From the NCBI GenBank assembly GCA_963733195.1, contig CAVTCR010000050.1, positions 160,001-224,000 on the forward strand: DNA of 64,000 nucleotides, given 5' to 3'. Positions 387-38,030 of this stretch are shown piece after piece; within the stretch, counting starts at the first letter, position 1, and each line of letters begins with the position of its first letter. The notes beneath the pieces were generated by a model. It had not been told where the DNA came from, ran no database searches, and saw only the letters and a list, made by a program, of their open reading frames with translations. Source of the stretch: an uncultured delta proteobacterium. GTDB lineage: Bacteria > Desulfobacterota > Binatia > Bin18. Made by a program: the position numbers and the translations under genes.

Positions 387-3300
387 ATGTCCGCGCCGCT
401 ACTGAGTTTTCCCCCATACTCGCTTGACGTTGAGAATGCCTGTCTCTGGCAAGGAAAAAAGCGCATTGATCTCATGCCGCGAGACTTTGCTGTCCTCCAC
501 CATTTGGCTTCTCATCCCGAACGACTGGTAACTCACGAAGAACTACTCTCAGCTGTCTGGACCGACACCGTTGTGAGCCCAGGCGTGTTGAAAGTTTGCA
601 TTCGTCGTATTCGCCGAATCTTACAGGACGGGGCGGATGCGCCACGGTTTATCGAAACCCGCCATCGGCAGGGGTATCGGTTCATCGCAAAAGTAGTCAG
701 TAGTCAGGCAGAAGAAAAGCCAAAGGCATCAGTAGCTCCCGATACTCAGTTCTCCGCCCTCAGTCCTCCGCACTCTCTTCTAGTAGGCCGGGAAGCAGAA
801 TTTGAGCAGTTACAGGGGAAACTCGAAAAGGCCCTCCACGGCGAACGGCAAATTGTCTTCGTGACTGGAGAACCCGGCATTGGCAAAACCACTCTCATCC
901 GGGCGTTTCTCAGACAAGTTGCAACCCGTAAAGTGGCGGCGATCGGGCGAGGACAATGCGTAGAAACCTATGGAGCCGGGGAAGCTTACCTGCCGATTCT
1001 CGAAGCGCTGGGGCGACTCTGTCGGGCTCCAGAGGGCGAGCCGTTAGTCGAATGGCTCCGGCAACATGCCCCGACGTGGCTCATGCAACTGCCAACGCTG
1101 CTGACCACAAGTGAGGCGGAAGCCTTGCAACAAAAATTGCAGGGGGCCACTCAAGCACGGATGCTACAGGAGATGCTCGCCGCGGTTGAGACTCTAACGC
1201 CCGGACGTCCCCTTGTTTTGAGTATCGAAGACCTGCAGTGGAGCGATTATTCGACGCTTGATCTGCTGGCAATCTTGGCCCGTGGCCACGAGCCCGCTCG
1301 ATTATTGATCATCGGCACGTACCGTCTCGGAGAAATGCTCAGTAATGGCCATCGCTTACGTAAGGTCGTACGTGAATTGTATGCACATCAGCAGGCCAGC
1401 GAAGTGGCTTTGGGTCTCCTTAACGCATCTCACATCGGAGAATATGTACAACAGCGATTTCCTCACAACACGTTTCCCACAACCCTCGCCCCGGTTCTCC
1501 ACCAGCGCACCGAAGGCAACCCGTTGTTTCTGACCAATGTACTGGAGGATTGGGTAAGTCGCGGGGTCCTTATCCATGACGAAGAGAGCTGGAAGCTGCA
1601 AGCAAATTTCGAAGCGGTGGTGAGTGAGATACCCAACACGATTCGTCATCTCATTACGATTCAGAGTGAGCAACTGTTACCAGAGGAGCGTCGTGTCCTG
1701 GAGGTCGCCAGTCTGACTGGTATAGAGTTCTCCTCAGCCGCGGTAGCGGCAGCTCAGCAGACCGATGTCCTGGAAGTGGAAGAGTGGTGTGCAGGGCTAG
1801 CCAGCCGGCAACAATTTCTGCGGCCCGCCGGAGTAAGCCGGTGGCCGGACGGAACAATGGCCGAACGTTATGGATTTCTACATGCCCTGTACCAACAGTT
1901 CTGGCACGAACGAGTGCGTCTTGGACAGCGGCAATGGTATCACCTACGGATTGGCGAGCGACAGGAAGCTGCCTATGGCGAGCGGGCAGGAGAAATCGCG
2001 GCTGAATTAGCGATTCACTTTGAGGAAGGGCGAGATTATCCCCGTGCCGTACGGTATCGCTCGCAAGCCGCCGAGAATGCGATCCAACGCTATGCATCTC
2101 AGGAAGCAGTAGTCCATCTCACAAAAGGATTAGAACTGCTCAATCACCACCCTGACACCCCTGAGCGCATGCAACAGGAATTTGCTCTCCGAGCGACACT
2201 GGGGATTTCACTCCAAACGATTCAAGGTTACGGCAATCCTGTCGTAGAAGCAGCGTACACCCGGGCGCAGGAACTATCTCGGCAGATCGGAGAACCGGCC
2301 CAGCTTTTTCTCGTCTTGTATGGGCTTTGGATGTTTCATGTGTCACGAGCAGAGCACAACACTGCCCGTGACCTTGGGGAACAATTGCTTAGCTTGGCAC
2401 ACAGGGCACACGATAGCGGTCTGCTTATAGAGGCCCACGCAACGATGGGTGTCACTCTCGTATACCTGGGAGAGTTGCAGAGGGCCCGTACTGAACTGGA
2501 AGCTACTCTTACTCTCTACGACCCGCAGCAGCATCGTGGGCTGGCCTTTGTGTATGGACAGGACCCGAGGATTGCCTGTGGAGGGTACTTAAGCCAAGTC
2601 ATGTGGTTATTAGGTTATCCTGACCGCGCCCGACAGCGAAGCGAGGAGACTTTGCGATACGCTCAGGATTTCACCCACCCTATCAGTCAGGCGTACGCGC
2701 TTAACGAATGCGCCCTATTTTATCAACTCGTTCACAACACCTCGGTTGTTCAGCGGTTGGCAGAAGAGTTATTAGCGTTTTCTCAGCAACACAAATTCTC
2801 CTTTTGGGAGTTAGCAGCAGTAAGCCTACAGGCATGGTTGCTTACGGAACAAGGACAGCCGGCGAAATCCATTGCTCAGCTGCGTCAAGGTTCTTCTGTC
2901 CGAAAAGCCACGGGGACTGCCCTAAGATTACCGTATTACCAAGGATGCTTAGCCGAGGCCTACGGGAAGAATAATCAGCCCGAGGAGGGGATAACCCTTG
3001 TAGAGAGAGCTCTCGCAGTGATAGCAAGTACCGGTGAACGGTGGTGGGAAGCAGAGATTTATCGCCTCAAGGGAGCGCTTACGCTTCATCCCGACAGGTT
3101 ACAAACAGTCTCGTCAGTCAGGTCAGTTAAGGCAAGTCCAGTGTCGAAGTCCGAAGTCCCACAGTCCAGGTCCAGTGTAGAGCAGAGTCAGAGGCTGAGG
3201 AATGTTTCTTAAGGCAATCGAGATCGCACGAAGGCAGCAAGCAAAGTCACTGGAGTTGCGAGCGACAATGAGTCTCGTCCGTCTGCGGCAACAGCAAGGG

Positions 3301-3411
3301 AAGAAAAAGAAGGCCCGCGAAATGTTAGCAGCAATTTACGGTTGGTTCACCGAAGGGTTTGACACCAAGGACTTGCAAGAGGCCAAGGGTTTGCTTGAAA
3401 CTTTGGCTTAA
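387..3411 (+). CDS. Winged-helix (OmpR/CadC-type) + AAA ATPase + TPR transcriptional regulator; frameshifted near 3190-3210
   Basis: N-terminal wHTH (FIETRHRQGYRF), Walker A GEPGIGKT, LSIEDLQW, helical repeats. The family C-terminus EAEECF-LKAIEIARRQQAKSLELRA continues in other frames (ORF 3202-3411). Confidence 0.85.
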
Positions 3412-3467
3412 ACAGCAAGTGAGGGCGAGACCTGAAGCAAGTGCGTAACTGTTATTGGCAAACACCC

Positions 3468-3647
3468 TTATAAAGTCTTCAGATACTGGATCAGGTTCTT
3501 CCGTTTCTCCGGCAACAGGTTCGTACCGTACTCATGGCCACCATTTGAGTTTCCCTGCTTAGTCGTATCGAGGCGAGCTGCACCAGCACATTTTTCGTCT
3601 CCAGTGTCGAATCCTACTTTCACAGGGCCGAACTTGCGACTACCAAG
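3468..3647 (-). pseudogene. C-terminal fragment of a RoxA-like / di-heme cytochrome c family protein
   Basis: Manual translation LGSRKFGPVKVGFDTG...LDTTKQGNSNGGHEYGTNLLPEKRKNLIQYLKTL*; the GNSNxGHEYG...LIxYLKTL ending is typical of this family; no start or heme motif present. Confidence 0.7.
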
Positions 3648-3860
3648 GATCCGAACAACTGCTCGCCTTTTTCGTTGACTAGACCTGTAATCGCAGTGGG
3701 GAGCGTAATGCGAGCATTGCCAGGGAAACGAATCAAGATCACGCCACTTGCCGCCCGGGCATTGGCGTAGACCAGTTCGCCAAAGTCCTTGTCCTCGGTC
3801 AGCAGCACGCGGTGCTCAAGCACCGCCAGGTCGATGATTGCCGTGTCCTCGGCGCGCGAG
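3620..3860 (-). pseudogene. DUF5615 / PIN-like protein, 5'-truncated
   Basis: SRAEDTAIIDLAVLEHRVLLTEDKDFGELVY...GVILIRF; the usual N-terminal MRFLADE strand is missing. Confidence 0.75.
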
Positions 3861-3862
3861 GC

Positions 3863-4192
3863 TTTACACCAGTCGTCAGTGTCCCACTCGTCCTAGAATA
3901 CGAAAGTGTCTTGAAAAGAAAAAACTTCCTCCACGAAGTGGGCCTCACCGCAAAGGAGATGGACACGATCGTCGATTATTTTATCTCTCGGGCGTATCTG
4001 CAACCGATCTACTTTCTCTGGCGCTCCTTTCTTCCTAACGCGCACGATTCGCACGTGTTGGAATGTGCGGTGAATGGGAGGGTGGAAACGTTGCTGACCT
4101 TTAACAAAAGACATTTTCCCGCTGTACGGCAACGGTTTGGCATTTCGGTGCTCACACCGGGAGAATTTCTGAAAACGTTTGGAGGTTCCTAA
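3863..4192 (+). pseudogene. PIN-domain (PIN_3-type) toxin, 5'-truncated
   Basis: VVSVPLVLEYESVL...DSHVLECAVNG...LLTFNKRHF...VLTPGEFL; N-terminal VxDTNV motif is absent. Confidence 0.75.
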
Positions 4193-4194
4193 CT

Positions 4195-4491
4195 ATGGCA
4201 AAGCGAACAACGATCCGTCTCATTCCTCCTTTGCAGGAAGATCTCTCAAGACTCGCTGAGGAAATGCAGGTGTCGTACAATCAGTTAGTCAACTACGCTT
4301 TGGCGCAATTTGTCGAAGCCCAAAAGGGTCTGACTATTGTAGAAGCACGGGCCCGTCGAGGATCACGGGCGGCTTTCCTCCACGCACTGAAGAAGGCAGA
4401 CCCGCGGCGCAGGAAGCCCGAAACAGAGGATGCATTACCAGAGGGATACTCACGGCAAGTGTTGATTGCAAAGTTAAAAAGAGCGTCGTAG
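4195..4491 (+). CDS. Probable ribbon-helix-helix antitoxin / DNA-binding protein
   Basis: Small ORF directly after the PIN gene; TTIRL...LSRLAEEMQVSYNQLVNYALAQFV fits RHH/HicB-like antitoxins. Confidence 0.65.
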   Translation: MAKRTTIRLIPPLQEDLSRLAEEMQVSYNQLVNYALAQFVEAQKGLTIVEARARRGSRAAFLHALKKADPRRRKPETEDALPEGYSRQVLIAKLKRAS

Positions 4492-4632
4492 CGGGTGGAG
4501 TCAACGAAGCGTCTTCAGAGTCGTCCTACTTCAGGCTCATGACTATGGCACCGTTACCTCCTCCAAAAGTGCCTTTGCTTCCTTGACAGCTTACGTTGAG
4601 ACGCGATAGGGGGTACGCGACAGGAGGAAACT

Positions 4633-5997
4633 ATGACACAAACCACTGTGTTCAAGAACGCTCGGCTGATTGATGGTCTGAGTGATCAACCACGTAGTAA
4701 CGTATCACTAGTTATCACCGGCGATCGTATTACCACAGTTGAAGCAGGAGCAGTTCTTGCACCTCCAGACGCGCAGGTCGTTGATCTGCAAGGAAAGACG
4801 GTTGTTCCGGGCTTAATCGATACTCATGTGCATTCCACGTTCGTCGGCACTCCCAGTTTGCCGCTGTTTCTTGCTGCTGGTGTCACCAGCGCGCGCGACG
4901 TTGGTGGCAATCTCGAAAAAGTCAAAGGACTCAAAGCTGACCTCAACAGTGGCAAGAAACTTGGTCCGCGGTTGTTTATCTGTGGACCGTTACTCGATGG
5001 CTCGGTCAAGAGTTTTGAGTACCCGTCGTTTGCCGAGATGCTCGATAACATTCCGTCACCTGAAGTGGTGCCACAGAAAATTGGTGCGTTGCTCAACGCC
5101 GGAGTCGATGCGGTAAAGCTCTACTTTACTCTCATGCCGGATACTGCCACAGCGATCATCAAGTTTGTTGACAATCGCGTCCCAGTCACGGGTCATCTTG
5201 GCTATATGCATTCGCTTGACGCTATCAAAGCAGGCATTAACGGCTTGGAGCACGTGTGGATCTCGCCGTACAACGAGTTCTGCGCCCTTGATATGCAGTT
5301 TGGCGTCGGCGCGTCGATGATGAGCGGCAAGTTCTGGAATCAAACGCTCAAAGGCTGGGAAGAGGCTGACCTGCAGAATCCTCGTGCCCGTGAGTGGTTT
5401 GACGCGATGGTCAAACAGCAAGTGAATATGGGCACCACACTTGATCTGCTGTGGATCGCGAGATGTGGAGAAGAAGGCGTCAAGCGCGACCAAGATCGTT
5501 GTTACATTCCTCCGTACGCACTCTCTCGGCAACGGGCGATGGCCTCGCGCATCGGCGAACGTCCAGACTGGGATATTCACCCTGGGTTTTTTGATCCATA
5601 CAAAGGCACCCAAGCACTAGAGAAACATCAACAGGTCACTAGGATGTTGCACGAAGCTGGAGGGCTCGTGGTCGGAGGCACTGACTGCGGTGCGTTAGCG
5701 TATCCACCGCCGGGGTTCGCGCTGCTGCGGGAAATCGAACTGCTGGCTGATGCGATTGGCACCACAGCGGCCCTTAAAGCAGTCACTTCAGTTGCGGCTC
5801 GCTATCTCCGCCAGCAAGACAACATCGGCTCGATCGCCCCTGGGCGCTATGCAGACTTCTTGGTCATCGATGGTGACCCGTTGCGCGATGTACGGGAGCT
5901 GCGTAAGCTCACCACCGTCTACCGTGGCGGGGTGGCGTATGATCCACAAGCGCTTCTCGCCCAGGTACCAAAGTCAGATTTTGTTCCAATATCTTAA
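4633..5997 (+). CDS. Amidohydrolase family protein
   Basis: PGLIDTHVH metal motif, GTD, GSIAPGRYADFLV; AGGAGG RBS. Confidence 0.9.
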   Translation: MTQTTVFKNARLIDGLSDQPRSNVSLVITGDRITTVEAGAVLAPPDAQVVDLQGKTVVPGLIDTHVHSTFVGTPSLPLFLAAGVTSARDVGGNLEKVKGLKADLNSGKKLGPRLFICGPLLDGSVKSFEYPSFAEMLDNIPSPEVVPQKIGALLNAGVDAVKLYFTLMPDTATAIIKFVDNRVPVTGHLGYMHSLDAIKAGINGLEHVWISPYNEFCALDMQFGVGASMMSGKFWNQTLKGWEEADLQNPRAREWFDAMVKQQVNMGTTLDLLWIARCGEEGVKRDQDRCYIPPYALSRQRAMASRIGERPDWDIHPGFFDPYKGTQALEKHQQVTRMLHEAGGLVVGGTDCGALAYPPPGFALLREIELLADAIGTTAALKAVTSVAARYLRQQDNIGSIAPGRYADFLVIDGDPLRDVRELRKLTTVYRGGVAYDPQALLAQVPKSDFVPIS

Positions 5998-31236: not shown

Positions 31237-31525
31237 ACGACGATCCTTTCCTGTAGGAGTCATGCGGACAATGCATAGATTTGACGCATCTCTATCGAAC
31301 ACCCGTAGAACGATGACAGAGGGGAGAGTCCCTTACTCCGGCTTCATTTAAGATATTGCTGAAGTTCGAAAATAGTCTCAAACTGTTCGTCATTGCGTTC
31401 AAATCAGTTCATAGATTACTGAACACGAACAACTGAGAGGATTTCTTTTCTGACCAACCGGCCAAGAGCCGAACAACAGGAAGAGCAATTCGAGAAAGGA
31501 AACTGAGACTTTAGTCCAGGGTGAA

Positions 31526-31571
31526 GATAGCGGCGGGCGGAATCGAACCGCCGACCTAGGGATCATGAGAC
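31526..31571 (-). repeat. 3' half of tRNA-Met (att site)
   Basis: 46-bp direct repeat of 33632-33677 with one mismatch, from the anticodon arm to the 3' end. Confidence 0.92.
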
Positions 31572-33630
31572 TAAGATAACCATGGCTATTATCATTGATC
31601 TTTTTAGAAGTTTTACTAGTCGATACATCATCCTGCATGAACCGACACGCATCCCAGACGCAACCATACAAGTTATGATAGTTGTAGAGGAGAGAGGCTC
31701 TGCTCCGCTTTCTTCCTCAGCTAGCAGCTTTCCAGCAATTCCGCTCTGTGTCATCAGGCACTAACGCGTGGGGTGAGGGGAAACTCGTCGTGCGAAGCGA
31801 GCAATCCGTTGACGCTGATTTCCCGGGTATGGTAGTACACCGGCAAGATAACGTGTGTGTAACTCTGCATTCTGACCCATCTCGTGTAGGCAGGAGAGGT
31901 AACGATGACATCCAATCGACGAAGCAACACGCAGAGCAACCATATTGACTCATAAATAAGATTTGCAGAGGTTTTTATGTCAGGGATCATTCGTTGGAGG
32001 TTTATCTCCGTGCTGCTCAGGCTCTGCGTGCTTCTCATAGGGGTGGTGGGTCTCGGTACTGGGGCGAGTGCCCAGACGGGGTGTCATTACTATGCCTCCC
32101 CGACCGGCACGGGGAACGGGCTTTCTCCCGCAACCCCGTTTAAGGTCAACAATTTTTGGGCAGTCGCGGCTCCAGGGAAGACCCTGTGCCTGTTAGATGG
32201 GGCGTATAGCGGGTCAGAATCGATGATTGACCCGCCGGATAATTTGAGTGGCACCCAAGGGAACCCCATTACGGTCCGGGCCCTGAATGATGGGGCAGTG
32301 AGGATTGACGGGGGAGGGCGCACGGCACGTCATCGATCTCATCGAACAGTAACGACTGGTTTGTTGTTGAGGGGATTAGATGACGCGCAGTGGCTCTCAA
32401 AGTTGGGGTCGGCGAGCGGTCACTCGCTAGTGATAATAATATTATGCGTTGTGTTGTCTGCTGGGACATTTCACCGTCCACCGGGGACGGGGATGGCGCG
32501 GATTACGTACCGAAGGAATACTAACGTCAACAGGGGAAACGCTGTTTGAAGACGTGGCTTGTTTTGGGCGCGGTCGAAAAATATTTTACCAATGCGCAGG
32601 GAGGCAACTAGTGGTCAGTATTCAAGCTCGACTTTTAGGCGCGTCTGGGGGAGATGGGAAGGCAAGTACGGATACTGTTGCTAATCCGAAACACACCTTT
32701 GAATTGTTCGTATAACTCGTGGTAATACCATATTTGAGAATATCATTGGGACATGGGACGATTCTGGGCAGCCAAGTTTGAGCGAACCTGAAGGCGCTCG
32801 ATTTTCTGGGCGCACGTCAAACCAGCTCCAGGTGCGATATGCCTATTAACCGTCATGGGATGATCCAAATCCTGGGTTCCATATTGGCTGATTAATGACT
32901 GGAGATCTAACATGACTTCAGGCAAAACCTGAGAGATAGCGTCCGCGAGGCAAAGCGATAAATTACCCGTTGACCAGATTCTCTTGGCAAACGAACTCCC
33001 TGTTTTTCCTGGAGCCGGAAGATGTCGTTTGCAGGGAAAAGAGCCATTGCGTATGGACAATATGAGCATCCCAGGCACGCAGTTATTTCTCAGGGCCGGG
33101 GGGATGAGTGTCGCCAAAATTGGTGGAAGCGCGCATCAGTGTATATTGGCAGCGAGTGGAAGAAAGACAAACATTTCGTGAAGGGGCAACGATAGAGGCG
33201 GCTATTGGTTCCGGGAACAGTATTCATGGACCGAAGGTACCAGGGGCTGCGCAAGCGCTATCAGGATGGGGTTCTTACTGGCGAGCCGCTCTGGCCATGG
33301 CCGATGAACCAGCGCATTAAGAACGCCATGATGGCATCGGGCAGGTCTCCGGTTGATGTAACCCAAACGGTGACCCGGATATTTGGTCCAATTCCTCAGA
33401 GGTGCCTTAGGAGCAATAGTAATAGTAGTGTGGGCGCACCAGCTAACCTGCGTATAACCCAATAGTAATTATTCTGGACTGAAGGGAAGCGTAAACCATT
33501 ATGACACCTGATATGGGATGCATAACGTTTAAGTGGCAAATAACCGAAGCGATAGATATTTCTTTATCATCGCATTTCCGCAATGGGTTCGGACACTGTT
33601 TTAGAGAAACGTGTAAGTAGTGGGAAAGGT
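31572..33630. mobile_element. Small island A bounded by the complete tRNA-Met and its displaced 3' half
   Basis: Flanking direct repeat; cargo is one degraded secreted-protein gene; no integrase inside. Confidence 0.7.
31977..33465 (+). pseudogene. Heavily frameshifted secreted protein, probably parallel beta-helix / polysaccharide-lyase-like
   Basis: Signal peptide, YYASPTGTGNG...PGKTLCLLDGAY...GTQGNPITVRALNDG; C-terminus RYQDGVLTGEPLWPWPMNQRI; middle broken into short ORFs. Confidence 0.6.
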
Positions 33631-33633
33631 TGA

Positions 33634-33707
33634 TAGCGGCGGGCGGAATCGAACCGCCGACCTAGGGATTATGAGACCCTCGCTCTAGCCTACTGAGCTA
33701 CGCCGCC
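33634..33707 (-). tRNA. tRNA-Met (CAT), probably elongator; CCA not encoded
   Basis: GGCGGCGTAGCTCAGTAGGCTAGAGCGAGGGTCTCATAATCCCTAGGTCGGCGGTTCGATTCCGCCCGCCGCTA folds as a cloverleaf with paired 1:72. Confidence 0.93.
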
Positions 33708-33746
33708 ACATGAGGAAAGTCAGGTGACTTACAGACAATTGCAGGG

Positions 33747-34095
33747 TCAACTCCGAGGAAGGGTAAGTTGAAGGGTAGTTGTTTGAGCGGTCAACGCACT
33801 TTCTATCCGTTTCGCAGCTTCCCGTAAGTCCCCATCCGACACAATGTGATAGCGGTCAAAGATGTTGCGTGTCTTATGACCACTCATTTGCATTGCTACT
33901 CGTTCAGGGATACCTGCTCTCACCATATTTCTCACTGCCGTTCGTCTGAAGTCGTGCGGAATCCTACCAACAAGCCCCGCTTCCTGGCAAGCCCGGTGCC
34001 AACGCTTGTAGTAGTTCGCAATCTTTCGCCCATAGTCATGAAAAACAAGTGGACACTGAGGATCGCGGGTAGTGTCTTCAATCTGTTGGTATGAG
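33747..34095 (-). pseudogene. Tyrosine recombinase / integrase C-terminal fragment
   Basis: PHDFRRTAVRNM...SGHKT..IFDRYHI (HxxR, H, Y residues); N-terminal part with first catalytic Arg is missing. Confidence 0.88.
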
Positions 34096-34370
34096 AACAA
34101 GCGGCTATGAGGGAGCGAGAGAGGAGAACTGCCGATGGTGGAAGCAGTCGTACGGTGTCCGCACTGTCGAGTGACACGGTAGTGAAGTATGGCCGGGCAA
34201 GTAATGGCAAGGCGCGGTGTCGCTGTCTGCAATAGGTTGACACGCGCCCTCGACATCGAATAGGGTTACCGTCGTTCAACAGACGTCGGCGTCAGCGGGG
34301 CGGAGGCTGAGCCCAGCAAAGACCGTTCGAGCACCGCAGGGGCTGACGCGCGCGCCAAGGAGCCACTGGT

Positions 34371-35792
34371 ATGCGTCATCTGCTTATCCATCTCATCAAT
34401 CCGAAGACCGATTCACTGACCACGCGGCCCCTGTATCTGAATCGGGCCCTGTACTCGCCGCTGGCCGGCTTGCTCGCCGTCGCCGGGGCCCTGCCGCGCG
34501 ATCGCTGCGAGGTGGTGCTGACCGACGAGAACATCGAGGCGATCGATTTCGACCTCAAGGCAGACCTGGTCGGCATCTCCGCCATGACCTGTTACGTGAA
34601 CCGCGGCTACGAGATTGCCGATGCGTTCCGGGAGCGCGGGGTGCCAGTAGTGATGGGGGGGGTGCACCCGAGTTTCATGCCGCAGGAGGCGCTCAAGCAT
34701 TGCGACGCAGTGGTGATCGGCGAGGCGGAGTTAGTGCTTCCCCAACTCCTCGACGACCTCGAACGGGGCGTGATGCGTGGCACGTACAAGGCGGAGAGGC
34801 TGCACCCGATGGAAGGTCTGCCAATGCCACGGTATGACCTGATCAAAAAGAACCGGTATGTGAACCGGACGTTCGTGCAAACCTCCCGCGGCTGTCACCA
34901 GGGCTGTACGTTCTGCGCCGAGCCGCTGATGAACGGGCTCAAGTTTCGCTACCGTCCGGTGGAAGACGTGATCCGCGAAGTCGAGAGCTGCGGCTCGCGC
35001 CTCATCTCGATCAACGATGCCGACTTCTTCGGCACGCCGGAGCGTCCGAAGGAGGTCATGCGCGCCCTCAAGGGGCGGGGCATCCACTGGCAGGCCGGCG
35101 TTACCTCAAAGCTCGCGCAGGACGACCATATGCTCGAGCTTGCGGCCGAGAGCGGCTGCACCTTACTGAGTATCGGCTTTGAGTCGATCACGCGCTCGAC
35201 CCTGACGAGCGTCCACAAGCACGTGAACCGTCCCGACACCTTCGCGGCCTTGGTGGAAAAAGTGCACTCCTACGGGATCATGGTGTTCGGCCTCTTCATG
35301 TTCGGGTTTGACGGCGACGACGGCTCAGTCTTCGAGGAGACCGCCCGGTTCAATATCGACGCGGACTATGATGCCTGCGCCTATTCGGTCCTCACGCCCT
35401 ATCCGGGCACCCTGACCTGGTACGAGATGAAGAAGGCCGATCGCATCGTCTCCTTTGATTGGACAAAATATGACCAGGGAAATGTGGTCTATCGACCGGC
35501 ACAGATGTCGGGTGACGAACTCCGACTCGGGCAGGCCTCTGCCTATGAGACGTTTTACGCGCCGTCATCAATCCTCCGTCGCTTCCCGCTGCGCGGGGGG
35601 CGCAATCGGCTCCAGTGGTCCATCTACAATCTGTTCATGAAAAAAGGTGCAGCGACGGATCGTAAGGAGGCGATTGCCGAGCCGACCATAGCCCCCGCCA
35701 CAGCGCCGATGCCCCCCCTTCTACCGCTCAAGCGGGAGTGGCGCCAAGCGGTGGTGGAAGCGACAGGGGCCGCCGGGCTGGATGGTCAATGA
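34371..35792 (+). CDS. B12-binding-domain radical SAM protein
   Basis: VVMGGVHPS, QTSRGCHQGCTFC (CxxxCxxC), IGFES, LTPYPGT. Confidence 0.92.
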   Translation: MRHLLIHLINPKTDSLTTRPLYLNRALYSPLAGLLAVAGALPRDRCEVVLTDENIEAIDFDLKADLVGISAMTCYVNRGYEIADAFRERGVPVVMGGVHPSFMPQEALKHCDAVVIGEAELVLPQLLDDLERGVMRGTYKAERLHPMEGLPMPRYDLIKKNRYVNRTFVQTSRGCHQGCTFCAEPLMNGLKFRYRPVEDVIREVESCGSRLISINDADFFGTPERPKEVMRALKGRGIHWQAGVTSKLAQDDHMLELAAESGCTLLSIGFESITRSTLTSVHKHVNRPDTFAALVEKVHSYGIMVFGLFMFGFDGDDGSVFEETARFNIDADYDACAYSVLTPYPGTLTWYEMKKADRIVSFDWTKYDQGNVVYRPAQMSGDELRLGQASAYETFYAPSSILRRFPLRGGRNRLQWSIYNLFMKKGAATDRKEAIAEPTIAPATAPMPPLLPLKREWRQAVVEATGAAGLDGQ

Positions 35793-35821
35793 GCCGACGC
35801 CTTGGCGCTAGGCTCTTTTCG

Positions 35822-35921
35822 CAGAACATGGGAGGCAGAGGGTTTTGTTCACCGAAATGCAAAAACAGAGATGCAGTCCAACGGTTTCGGGAACGTCATA
35901 GCGAAGAATTGCGAACCAAGG
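35822..35921 (+). pseudogene. CGNR-type zinc-finger C-terminal fragment
   Basis: RGFCSPKCKNRDAVQRFRER within ORF 35738-36055. Confidence 0.5.
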
Positions 35922-36125
35922 CCCGTGACCAAGCGGGAACGCGTTGTTGTGCACCGTCGCGGGAAGGCCGTTGCTGCTTTGATTCCTTTGGAAGACCTTG
36001 CCTTGATGGAAGAGTTGGAAGACCAGAAAGATATCGAGGAGTACCGGGTTGCTAAAGAGGAGTGGGAACGTGACGGAAGGAAGACGGTACCGTGGGTGAA
36101 GGTCAAGGCGGACCTCGGACTCTAG
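35922..36125 (+). pseudogene. Phd/YefM-family antitoxin, 5'-truncated
   Basis: ERVVVHRRGKAVAALIPLEDL...LEDQKDI...VPWVKVKADLGL. Confidence 0.75.
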
Positions 36126-36129
36126 CTTC

Positions 36130-36220
36130 TTCCCGATCCTATCGGCTCGAATTCACCACGGGCGCGGATCGGCATTCCGCAACTTCTCCAAAGCCATTCA
36201 AGAACGCCTCACCCCTCACC
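36130..36220 (+). pseudogene. RelE/ParE-family toxin N-terminal fragment
   Basis: SYRLEFTTGADRH...PKAIQERLTPH directly after the antitoxin, cut off at the tRNA half. Confidence 0.6.
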
Positions 36221-36263
36221 TATGAGACCCTCGCTCTAGCCTACTGAGCTACGCCGCCACATG
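36221..36263 (-). repeat. 5' half of tRNA-Met plus 5 upstream bases (att site)
   Basis: 43 bp identical to 33670-33712; ends in the anticodon loop. Confidence 0.92.
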
Positions 36264-36277
36264 GTGAAGGAGAGGTT

Positions 36278-36307
36278 TTTATACCAGAGGGGTCAGAGAC
36301 TGGGCAA
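36278..36307 (-). promoter_or_regulatory. Sigma70-type promoter upstream of the tRNA 5' half
   Basis: TTGCCC-N18-TATAAA with TG extended -10, about 20 bp before G1 at 36258. Confidence 0.6.
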
Positions 36308-36394
36308 GTCCAGCGCTCGATTACTGGCCCCAGTTGCGCCATTGCCACTTTCACGCGATCATCGCGCATTCCGCAAGGAAGGAGCGTCACTATA

Positions 36395-37562
36395 ATGAGA
36401 GAAGTCGTTATCGTTTCTGCTGCCCGTACAGGAATTGGCAAGGCGTTTCGAGGCAGCCTCAACAAGACTCATGGAGCAACACTCGCGGCTCATGTCATTA
36501 AGCATGCGGTCGAACGCGCAAAGATTGATCCTGTCGAAATTGAGGACGTAGTACTGGGTTGTGGCCTGCCTGAAGGAGCGACTGGTCATAATATCGCCCG
36601 TGTGGCAGCGTTACGAGCCGGATTGCCGAAAACTACAGCTGGAGTAACGGTCAATCGTTACTGCTCGTCTGGGTTACAGGCGATAAGTATGGCAGCGCAG
36701 AGGATTATTGTCGATGGCGCAGATACTATGGTTGCTGGCGGCGTAGAATCGATCAGCCTCGTACAAGGCTCGCTAAACACTAACAATTTCGTCGAAGAGT
36801 GGATGCATGCGAACCTGAAATCCATTTATTACCCGATGCTCTCAACGGCGGAGATCGTTGCGCAACGTTACAAGGTGTCGCGTGAGTCACAAGATGAATA
36901 CTCATTGATCAGCCAACAACGCACGGCCACCGCGCAAGCCGCAGGGAAATTCAGAGATGAGATCGTCCCGTTCACAACCAACATGGAAGTCACTGACAAA
37001 GCAAGTGGGCAAACCTCTCTTCAGGAAGTAACGCTTTCGCGAGATGAGGGGAACCGTCCAGATACGACGCTTGATAAGCTCACTGCCCTCCCCTCTGTCA
37101 CGAACGGCAGCATTACCGCAGGAAATTCCAGCCAGCTTTCCGATGGTGCAGCCGCCTGCGTGCTGATGGAAGCAAGTATCGCCGCGAAGAAAGGGCTGCA
37201 ACCAATGGGCGTGTATCGTGGTCTCATCGCCACCGGTTGTGAACCTGACGAAATGGGGATTGGGCCGGTGTTCGCTGTTCCCAAACTCCTACAGAGGCAT
37301 GGACTGAAGATGGAAGACATCGGCCTGTGGGAACTACGAAGTTTTTGCCGTGCAGACCTAATTGTCGCGATCGGCTAGGGATTCAATGGAACGATTCGTG
37401 GATGGTGGCGCGATTTCCATCGGTCACCCATACGGCATGAGTGGTGCACGCATGGTCGCCCATGCCCTTGCCGAAGGCAAGCGACGTAGCGTGAAGTATG
37501 TGGTCACAACGATGTGTGTTGGCGGCGGAATGGGCGTCGCTGGTTTATTCGAGGTCAACTAA
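36395..37562 (+). CDS. Acetyl-CoA C-acyltransferase (thiolase); frameshifts near 37335-37400
   Basis: VNRYCSSGLQA, TAGNSSQLSDGA, MGIGP, GGAISIGHPYG, TMCVGGGMG. Confidence 0.9.
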
Positions 37563-37569
37563 AAAGAAA

Positions 37570-37594
37570 AGGGGAAAGGATAAGGGATAAGGGG
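37570..37594. repeat. Left arm of heptamer inverted repeat enclosing the four-helix-bundle gene
   Basis: AGGGGAA AGGATAA GGGATAA GGGG. Confidence 0.85.
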
Positions 37595-37619
37595 TGGGGA
37601 ATAGAAAAGAGAGGCTAAT

Positions 37620-37996
37620 CACCAGCTCTGCTTCTTGCAATGACCTGATCTGCGCTGCCAGAGAGCGACTAAGTTCCAAAAGTGAAGTTCGCAAGTCGTT
37701 GTAGTGGACTTGATCGATGAAGCTAAGATCTATGCAACCCGCAGTAGACTGCGAACTTCTCCGGCGGAGCCCTTGGCGATAAGGAGGAAACGAATGTACT
37801 CCTTACGCGAAGAGCGCTCAAAACCTTCAGCGATGTTTGTCGGAACAGACACGGCAGCTCGTTGGAGTTGGTCGCGCAAGCCAAAGTCTTTGCTCAGCTT
37901 GCCTGCGGCTGTGAGGAAGTATACTTGCTTGACCAACTCAATTCCCTTTTGCCAAACCCGTAGATCTTCAAAATTTTCGATTCTTTTCTTCTCCAT
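37620..37996 (-). CDS. Four-helix-bundle protein (23S rRNA intervening-sequence protein family); frameshift near 37731, end approximate
   Basis: FEDLRVWQKG, DFGLRDQLQRAAVSVPTNIAEGFER, FLLIAKGSAGEVRS; last helix (DLSFID...LLELSRSLAAQIRSL) in another frame. Confidence 0.9.
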
Positions 37997-37998
37997 GT

Positions 37999-38030
37999 CC
38001 CCTTATCCTTTATCCCTTATCCTTTGCTCC
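37999..38030. repeat. Right arm of heptamer inverted repeat enclosing the four-helix-bundle gene
   Basis: CCCC TTATCCT TTATCCC TTATCCT TTGCTCC. Confidence 0.85.

Follow-up and report, generated by a model that had tools for sequence, protein, structure and literature searches.

A tRNA-Met gene in a Candidatus Binatia genome probably rebuilt by two integrative elements

The DNA analysed here is a stretch of 64,000 nucleotides (nt) from an uncultured bacterium of the Binatia (assembly GCA_963733195.1, contig CAVTCR010000050.1, positions 160,001 to 224,000; hereafter the window), and the subject of this report is its tRNA-Met gene, which is present as a 5' half, a complete copy and a 3' half. 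The source assembly is a metagenome-assembled draft of 6.9 Mb in 87 contigs, 93% complete and with 4.5% contamination, and the contig that carries the window is 272 kb long. The sole tRNA found in the window by ARAGORN is a tRNA-Met(CAT) at 33632-33708 on the minus strand, or 33707-33634 in the conventional 74-nt reading. It is a complete elongator-type tRNA-Met(CAU), which has 95-99% identity to the single tRNA-Met of relatives. On the same strand, the displaced 5' remnant (36221-36263) comprises a 5-nt leader and the tRNA from G1 (36258) to A37 (36221), and it is identical to the complete copy in 43 of 43 nt. The displaced 3' remnant (31526-31571, minus strand) begins at G30 in the anticodon stem, ends 2 nt beyond A73 (31528) and is identical in 45 of 46 positions, the one mismatch being G for A at 31564, which is position 37, the base 3' of the anticodon. 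The overlap of the two remnants is confined to the sequence GTCTCAT. The copies of 43 and 46 nt are the best two direct repeats across 12 kb, in which the next longest repeat is 29 nt at 83%, and a search of the whole 6.9-Mb assembly with tRNA-Met returned exactly three matches, all of them in the layout seen in the window. An earlier reading made from the letters of this DNA (the sequence-only reading) had proposed both the three-copy layout and an overlap of the halves restricted to the surroundings of the anticodon loop; the former is confirmed by ARAGORN together with the repeat and whole-assembly searches, and the latter by the repeat comparison.

Three tRNAs with a CAU anticodon occur in the assembly, and the window copy alone is of the elongator type. 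The CAU tRNA on contig C60 has a C1-A72 mismatch and A11:U24, by which, under the usual identity rules, it is presumably the initiator, and the one on contig C42 has a GGGCCC acceptor stem and is, by the same kind of rule, what we take to be tRNA-Ile2. The suggestion of the sequence-only reading that this might be the only elongator tRNA-Met is therefore borne out for the assembly; for the organism it is not certain. In total, 42 tRNAs were found in the source assembly, and several expected ones are missing from it. The tRNA-Met loci of 20 relatives, all Candidatus Binatia (labelled G002, G005, G010 and so on), were compared with the window, and the closed relatives G015 and G009 each have one close tRNA-Met match.

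Island B occupies the interval between the 5' remnant and the complete tRNA (36220-33708). A C-terminal fragment of a tyrosine integrase (33768-34088, minus strand), which retains approximately the last 105 codons and has lost the N-terminal two-thirds, reads into the 5' end of the tRNA. The fragment matches Pfam Phage_integrase (PF00589, E 7e-9) over positions 109-166 of the 172 in the profile and, with E 1.5e-49, positions 251-356 of a hidden Markov model (HMM) of its own family. The first-arginine and lysine regions are absent, and what remains is not a complete tyrosine recombinase catalytic domain. A full-length homologue of 368 amino acids (aa) in G005, with 73% aa identity to the window fragment, is encoded by an open reading frame (ORF) that ends about 12-16 nt before the same tRNA, and the residues of this homologue that fit the catalytic set (R199, K227, H291, R294, H317, Y326) are invariant in the alignment. 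An integrase remnant lies directly upstream of tRNA-Met in 8 of the 20 relatives' loci fetched; one of these eight is attached to a displaced 5' half, and such a joint indicates tandem insertions. The cargo of the island includes a B12-binding radical SAM gene (34371-35792, plus strand; Pfam Radical_SAM E 2e-16, B12-binding E 8e-16), over which the composition profile gives a G+C content of 0.59-0.64, the flanks being at about 0.50-0.54. Next comes the ORF of a Phd/YefM-type antitoxin without its toxin (35802-36125, plus strand), which is homologous to an antitoxin of G014 and matches PhdYeFM_antitox at E 7.6e-6, with a score of 26.1 bits that lies below the curated cut-off of 29.8. The last feature is an N-terminal fragment of a ParE/RelE-type toxin of about 40 codons (36092-36220, plus strand), cut at the junction with the 5' remnant.

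The region of the toxin fragment has 78% nt identity to an intact toxin-antitoxin pair upstream of the tRNA in G014, where the toxin matches Pfam ParE_toxin with E 1.7e-12; the window has no adjacent intact Phd/ParE type II pair. At the break point of the window the toxin gene of G014 reads GCGTCTATGGAC, a sequence resembling the core of an attachment (att) site, and the window junction itself reads CATA up to the break and GGTGAGG after it. Displaced 5' halves were also found in G002, G003 and G024, which have in common the clean junction CATAA(G/T)CCAAC with GATATAG-type repeats beyond it, in two more distant genomes, at L070 (in Terriglobales, where the gene is tRNA-Ile2-like) and L073, and at the tRNA-Phe locus of the source genome. 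The toxin-cutting junction of the window probably arose by a secondary deletion, possibly at a pseudo-site.

Island A, located between the complete tRNA and the 3' remnant (33633-31572), is a decayed 3'-side island with only short broken ORFs. No Pfam family was recognized among the three ORFs tested, and neither the family HMM nor tblastn nor a probe from a second integrase family gave an integrase signal. Its arms can be followed in the relatives. The tRNA-proximal arm (33592-33633, 25-42 nt) aligns with sequence flanking the complete tRNA of G005, G013, G011 and G024, and the distal arm (31572-31678, about 100 nt) aligns with the sequence preceding the 3' remnant in G008. [quoted passage not shown] Repeats of GGTTGCGG(A) adjoin the G020 integrase and recur 80-150 nt ahead of the 3' remnants in G020, G008 and G024; the island A arm of the window has drifted and holds no exact GGTTGCGG(A) repeat. 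Island A is probably a decayed classical 3'-side island that belonged to this second integrase family. The second family has XerC/D-like motifs and, at locus L052 of G020 (oriented coordinates 1530-5075), GGTTGCGGA arm repeats. It has two homologues in the source genome, at C28:30869-31345 and C56:122727-122945, with 64% and 56% identity.

The site as it was before insertion can be recognized in the relative G010, in which the genes for amidohydrolase, 23S rRNA intervening-sequence protein (IVP), thiolase, one intact tRNA-Met, histidine kinase and response regulator follow one another in the order of the window flanks. At the G010 site there are no partial tRNA copies within 20 kb and no islands, so that the empty site which the sequence-only reading had proposed to look for in relatives does exist. 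The histidine-kinase and response-regulator genes adjoin the 3' remnant of the window, just as they follow the intact tRNA of G010. On the other side, a resident promoter-like site, TTGCCC-N18-TATAAA (36278-36307, minus strand), ends 19 nt before G1 of the 5' remnant and aligns with a block before the intact tRNA of G010 and with one before the 5' half in G002, a member of the same genus. The sigma70-like promoter reported earlier upstream of the 5' half can thus be read at 36307-36278 and has aligned counterparts in both relatives; a consensus promoter scan did not list it, as the scanner demands T at the last -10 position. Therefore, given the aligned promoter block and the gene order of G010, the 5' and 3' remnants keep the upstream and downstream regions, respectively, of the gene before insertion. 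A soil-metagenome contig that is about 97% identical to the flank 31300-31571 continues for 9 nt as intact tRNA, not as island A, which is a weak hint of an allele lacking island A in a related population.

We consider it probable that the tRNA-Met gene was rebuilt by two different integrative elements, both of which crossed over in the anticodon loop. [quoted passage not shown] Its integration would have pushed the original promoter and 5' half upstream (36307-36221) and placed an integrase followed by a 5' half before the remainder of the tRNA gene. Element A would have brought a 3' half, the original 3' half being pushed downstream (31571-31526), and the working gene at 33707-33634 would then be a chimera of two att arms. 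Subsequent decay would have reduced element B to about 105 integrase codons, the radical SAM gene, an orphan antitoxin and a truncated toxin, and element A to an island with no integrase. The order of the insertion events, like the secondary deletion at the junction of island B, is what we infer from this layout. The sequence-only reading had ascribed the 5' half to island B and the 3' half to island A. Together, these assignments are supported by the island-free, colinear G010 site, by the integrase-to-tRNA junction, by the displaced 5' halves in G002, G003, G024, L070 and L073, and by the homology of arms to 3'-side islands of relatives. Its further claim, that the complete gene is element-derived and cut off from the host promoter, is supported on the same grounds, the distance between this gene and the pre-insertion promoter being 2.5 kb.

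The family of the island B integrase extends beyond this locus and allows the position of its att site to be examined. In the source genome, remnants of the family lie co-directionally upstream of 7 of 42 tRNAs, namely Arg-ACG (C5:62139), selenocysteine (SeC; C11:21479), Arg-CCT (C17:1553), Phe (C18:78218), Arg-TCG (C73:98650), Cys (C74:160994) and the Met gene of the window, and convergently downstream of 1 of 42, tRNA-Ala(GGC) at C81:199257; every copy in this genome is broken or truncated. The tRNA-Phe locus (L055, C18:68487-83745) is a larger version of the window layout. It begins with an integrase fragment and a 5' half (68881-68918), continues after 9.3 kb with insertion sequence (IS) transposases to a second integrase fragment and the complete tRNA-Phe (78218-78292), and includes 3' pieces at 79218-79279 (tRNA positions 14-75) and 83713-83745. 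Beyond the source genome, 16 loci from one-genome-per-species contigs and 80 loci from metagenomes were examined. A tRNA directly follows the integrase at 12 of the 16 species-level loci (9 co-directional and 3 convergent); none was called at the remaining 4, one of which (L068) has, by BLAST, an integrase fragment and then the 5' half of a tRNA-Met. At the metagenome loci, a complete tRNA lies within 300 nt in 35 of 80 cases, 10 co-directional and 25 convergent. Among the other 45, sufficient room (at least 120 nt) is available at 33, of which 7 have a partial tRNA match and 26 have none in a search that used a small tRNA library. Three of these seven, with ample room (L120, L136 and L127), have only a convergent 3' part of a tRNA, which begins at tRNA position 32 in L120 and 28 in L136, both in the anticodon stem-loop, and is a short end piece from position 63 in L127; L120 and L136 thus look as would be expected of an att site holding a 3' half. 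Displaced fragments were seen at 1 of the 35 metagenome loci, the contigs being too short to contain them. Two species-level loci are one-sided: in L061, which is classical, the integrase is full-length and a 3' remnant of 58 nt lies at a distance of 8.3 kb, and L070 is of the 5' type only.

In at least 10 loci of the family, and in both polarities, the motif GTAA(G/C)T-NNN-TGATT lies between the integrase frame and the end of the tRNA. In the window the corresponding integrase-end motif, GTAAGT-cacc-TGA, is at 33718-33732 on the minus strand, between the integrase reading frame and the tRNA. The stop codon is placed differently within the motif, as TGA in Binatia and as TAA in L061, which argues for a DNA site rather than a coding constraint. 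As a bare pattern it is not enriched within the window (6 matches against 12.8 expected, not significant), and the copies in the window itself have drifted. In both polarities the tRNA begins at a constant distance of 15-20 nt from the motif, and it begins 12-20 nt after the integrase stop codon; the 368-aa ORF of G005 is intact although integrated. These distances place the start of the att site of the family, as judged from its sequences, just after the integrase stop codon, and both polarities occur. A quick maximum-likelihood tree was computed from 34 integrases, after 6 of 40 candidate rows had been dropped (stop codon or fewer than 280 aa). It requires at least 7 changes of polarity, 3 of them forced by well-supported branches, and reveals no significant clustering by polarity. 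The source genome is rich in decayed tRNA-linked islands, and further exact or near-exact 3' remnants of tRNA-Gly(GCC) (C5:27501-27545), Leu(CAA) (C56:61769-61805) and Arg(CCT) (C17:5853-5897) and three of Cys (C74:148623-160203) were recorded.

Several observations weigh against the reconstruction by two elements or limit its reach. The window holds no intact integrase, and the junction after its 5' remnant cuts a toxin gene instead of being a clean att junction. Since island A has no integrase of its own, its probable place in the second family rests on the homology of its arms with those of relatives. Viral contigs contained no relative of the integrase and no unintegrated copy showing attP, the attachment site of the free element, and phage and plasmid collections gave only matches of less than 30% identity from a different clade, again without an attP. 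As the assembly is 93% complete, a second tRNA-Met is possible in the organism. Moreover, an inverted sequence resembling the integrase-end motif, cgtGTAAGTagtgggaaaggttga (33610-33633, plus strand), follows immediately after the tRNA 3' end, and an inverted motif of this kind occurs after the tRNA at 4 of the 7 co-directional loci of the source genome compared with 0 of its 35 other tRNAs, a feature which the model of two elements does not predict. The inverted motif had prompted the idea that islands A and B derive from one family in two orientations; this idea is weakened, as the G020 integrase belongs to a second family.

The inverted motif would be easier to accommodate if a single element had split the tRNA at a short core in the anticodon loop and brought with it a complete tRNA-Met behind its integrase, in the manner of tRNA-dependent lysogeny, a mechanism which, according to a part of PMC10865867, exists in phages. 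Such an origin would also agree with the presence of only one integrase remnant between the two halves, with the recurrence of the three-part layout both in L073 and at the source genome's tRNA-Phe locus, and with the absence of a separate integrase from the 3'-side islands at Cys, Arg-CCT and Phe. We nevertheless regard it as unlikely, because the 3'-side island of G020 carries a separate convergent integrase at the same tRNA and because the arm repeats differ, with GGTTGCGGA by the 3' remnants and the GATATAG type by the 5' remnants. The one-sided loci L061 (3' only) and L070 (5' only), and the loci L120 and L136, in which the integrase is followed only by a 3' part, argue for tRNA parts that lie within the att site, and the fixed spacing between the integrase-end motif and the tRNA in both polarities points the same way. 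The G020 integrase, by which a 3'-side island is seen to be able to carry its own integrase, also speaks against a very improbable explanation, in which a resident integrase would act as an integron-like platform and capture, at the anticodon loop, integrase-less cassettes that each end in a tRNA 3' half. The Cys, Arg-CCT, Phe and Met loci, each with an integrase upstream, one to three 3' remnants downstream and no other integrase, have the appearance of such a platform. However, all integrase copies in the source genome are broken or truncated, units of integrase and 5' half are displaced upstream in tandem (at the Phe locus and in G003) and so are mobile with the elements, and tandem 3' remnants are a normal result of repeated classical integration.

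The remaining alternatives do not involve a different element. The draft is a metagenome assembly of 87 contigs with 4.5% contamination, in which contigs of related strains might have been mis-joined, and no public run contains the whole stretch: no public sequencing run had more than 8% of the words sampled from it, and four runs aligned to the window gave scattered pieces of related populations, mostly at the radical SAM gene, with no joints seen and no usable information about transcription. An assembly or binning artefact is all the same highly improbable, because the repeats measure just 43-46 nt on a contig of 272 kb, the three-part layout appears again in the independent assembly L073 (a 1.14-Mb contig), equivalent layouts are found in independent assemblies of other genera, and the flanks are colinear with G010. 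Least probable of all, to the point of being scarcely credible, is a functional split tRNA whose halves are expressed and joined in trans, as happens in Nanoarchaeum. The 5' half does keep an apparently intact promoter, but a complete copy sits between the halves, no complementary trailer and leader were seen beside them (by visual check only), the flanks are att-arm sequences common to relatives, and the 3' half has G at position 37.

If the tRNA-Met gene was rebuilt by two elements, the question arises of how it is now transcribed. The integrase that precedes the working tRNA has lost its own start. Transcription would proceed either from a promoter-like block within the integrase remnant or by read-through from the old promoter. 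The block, CTTGCCA-N18-TAGGAT (33961-33991, minus strand), lies inside integrase codons, 253 nt before G1, and is the candidate for the present-day tRNA promoter; it has 9 of 12 consensus matches with a TG extension and falls within the conserved codons ACQEAG..G(K/R)I. A consensus scan of 31300-36500 was uninformative in its counts: promoter-like sites numbered 4 where 3.2 were expected, and terminator-like sites 3 where 4.3 were. In the whole genome, both strands included, the block pattern is found 11 times, and two of these occurrences are in the Met and Cys integrase remnants. Among the Binatia tRNA-Met 5' ends examined, 13 of 21 have the block, at distances to G1 of 256, 256, 253, 253, 241, 241, 114, 83, 78, 66, 35, 30 and 13 nt. 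The short distances at L040 (G011, 83 nt), L041 (G016, 35 nt), L043 (G014, 66 nt), L047 (G004, 30 nt) and L052 (G020, 78 nt) follow different internal deletions. In G014 about 200 nt of integrase codons were lost between the block and the leader, both of which were kept, and the same pattern is found in G011 and G020; in G016 the block is kept and the rest of the alignment is fragmentary. The block survives several independent deletions in relatives and may therefore now drive the tRNA.

The descent of the upstream blocks from integrase codons was evaluated by shuffling, which gave significant homology for G011, G016 and G004 (0 of 300 shuffles each), a suggestive value for G002 (3 of 300) and no significance for G010 (20 of 300) or for the old promoter of the window (40 of 300). 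Even loci that look free of islands may carry the fossil of an old 5'-side integration. G011 had been tried as a locus with island A only, and it was rejected as such when the alignment revealed an integrase-derived promoter block upstream. Against a general promoter role, the Phe, Arg-TCG and Arg-ACG integrase remnants are without the block. In the wider family it is present in 3 of 16 co-directional members, all of one clade, as compared with 0 of 28 convergent members, and the mean promoter scores of the two groups are 7.06 and 6.64. For the Binatia subclade, an embedded tRNA promoter is a reasonable hypothesis. A broader proposal is tentative, and we lean against it: that the integrase codons ACQEAG..GKI (CTTGCCA-N18-TAAGAT) are a tRNA promoter by which 5' integrations 're-head' an essential tRNA gene, that after the element has decayed hosts keep only the block and the leader, as the new promoter of the tRNA, that the resident promoter is itself an earlier integrase fossil, and that the tRNA-Met of Binatia has been re-headed repeatedly. 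Should the embedded promoter prove real, a coding sequence with two uses would clearly be at hand, one that passes to the host once the element is dead.

The sequence-only reading had also supposed that the rebuilt gene, if it is the only elongator tRNA-Met, could lock both remnants in place, and here it fares poorly. Recombination of the complete copy with either remnant would restore an intact gene, and essentiality therefore does not pin the islands; the relatives display many states of loss. What is constrained instead is imprecise deletion. There is one partial exception: if island A were excised through a crossover within GTCTCAT, the gene would acquire G37, which is probably harmful; A37 is needed for the modification of tRNAs that read A-starting codons.

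Two neighbouring features of the window were recorded beside the 5' remnant. The thiolase gene next to it (36395-37562, plus strand) is split into ORFs of 327 and 66 aa that overlap near 37362-37378; in relatives it is one ORF of 391 aa, and the split in the window is a frameshift or an assembly error. The IVP gene (37730-37996, minus strand; Pfam E 2e-29), which is also present in G010, is bracketed (37565-38028) by 30-nt inverted repeats rich in GGGATAAGG, at 37565-37594 and 37999-38028.

The integrase family of island B occurs in Binatia, Acidobacteriota, NC10 and Rokubacteria, and its polarity has switched several times. Textbook tRNA islands replace the 3' end of the gene, which keeps its own promoter, and this family often does the opposite. 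Mobile elements can therefore seize core genes of translation in their sequence as well as in their transcriptional control, programs that find islands or annotate tRNAs have to allow for 5' fragments, and such integrases may suit targeted insertion where replacement of the promoter is wanted. The replacement of 5' halves is already known from archaeal pTN3-like elements. A literature search, which is no proof of absence, found no description of a bacterial family with common and evolutionarily labile 5' polarity, of a sixth of one genome's tRNA genes being affected, of an essential tRNA assembled from two elements, or of a deletion series that keeps a promoter-like block.

The locus resembles classical tRNA islands in the crossover at the anticodon loop, in the att arm that restores the gene and in the displaced fragment of the same orientation by which the far end is recognized. 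Among classical islands, tandem and decayed ones are frequent, and island A fits this class fully. Unlike in classical islands, island B displaces the 5' side, so that the gene loses its own promoter, and both sides of tRNA-Met are occupied, with at most the short crossover region of the working gene being original. The rules of Islander, in the portion of PMC4383910 that sets them out, call for an intact tRNA gene accompanied by a cognate fragment of like orientation, which lies upstream if it is a 5' fragment and downstream if it is a 3' fragment. The tRNA-Met of the window has such fragments, and a relative (G010) has the unoccupied site; as for an integrase within the island, island B has only a C-terminal remnant and island A none. 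According to a passage of PMC8371274, rebuilt bacterial tRNA genes keep the original promoter 'with very few exceptions'. The earlier statement that 5' replacement is uncommon therefore stands in general, as far as that passage goes, and fails within the island B family, where such replacement is frequent.

The closest known counterparts in polarity are the pTN3-like (SSV-type) integrases of Thermococcales, which in the sections of PMC8371274 and PMC5495485 concerned target the tRNA's 5' half with displacement of the promoter; the former adds that expression proceeds from the integrase promoter and that such integrases are 'seldomly encountered in bacteria'. Like them, the island B family targets the 5' half and leaves a rebuilt, full tRNA separated from its promoter. 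In pTN3-like elements attP lies inside the integrase ORF and integration splits the gene. The island B family differs in having its att site behind the stop codon, an integrase that is left unsplit (G005), a bacterial host and also members of classical polarity. It is thus similar to pTN3 in polarity but probably not a member of that group, from which the att site, the unsplit integrase and the bacterial host set it apart. In tRNA-dependent lysogeny of mycobacteriophages such as Fionnbharth, as described in part of PMC10865867, the junction leaves the tRNA unrebuilt and a separate complete phage tRNA compensates. The common ground is that a tyrosine integrase targets a tRNA and that the host then needs tRNA sequence supplied by the element; the difference is that the evidence at the present locus favours rebuilding of the tRNA at the junctions.

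A last likeness concerns the accumulation of elements at one site. In the cis-mobilisable elements of streptococcal integrative and conjugative elements, accretion at one att site leaves remnants without an integrase. The tRNA-Met locus likewise has generations of elements and att repeats at one site, together with remnants that have no recombinase. In contrast to the streptococcal case, however, the pile-up at the tRNA-Met gene of the window is on both sides of the same tRNA and of opposite polarity.

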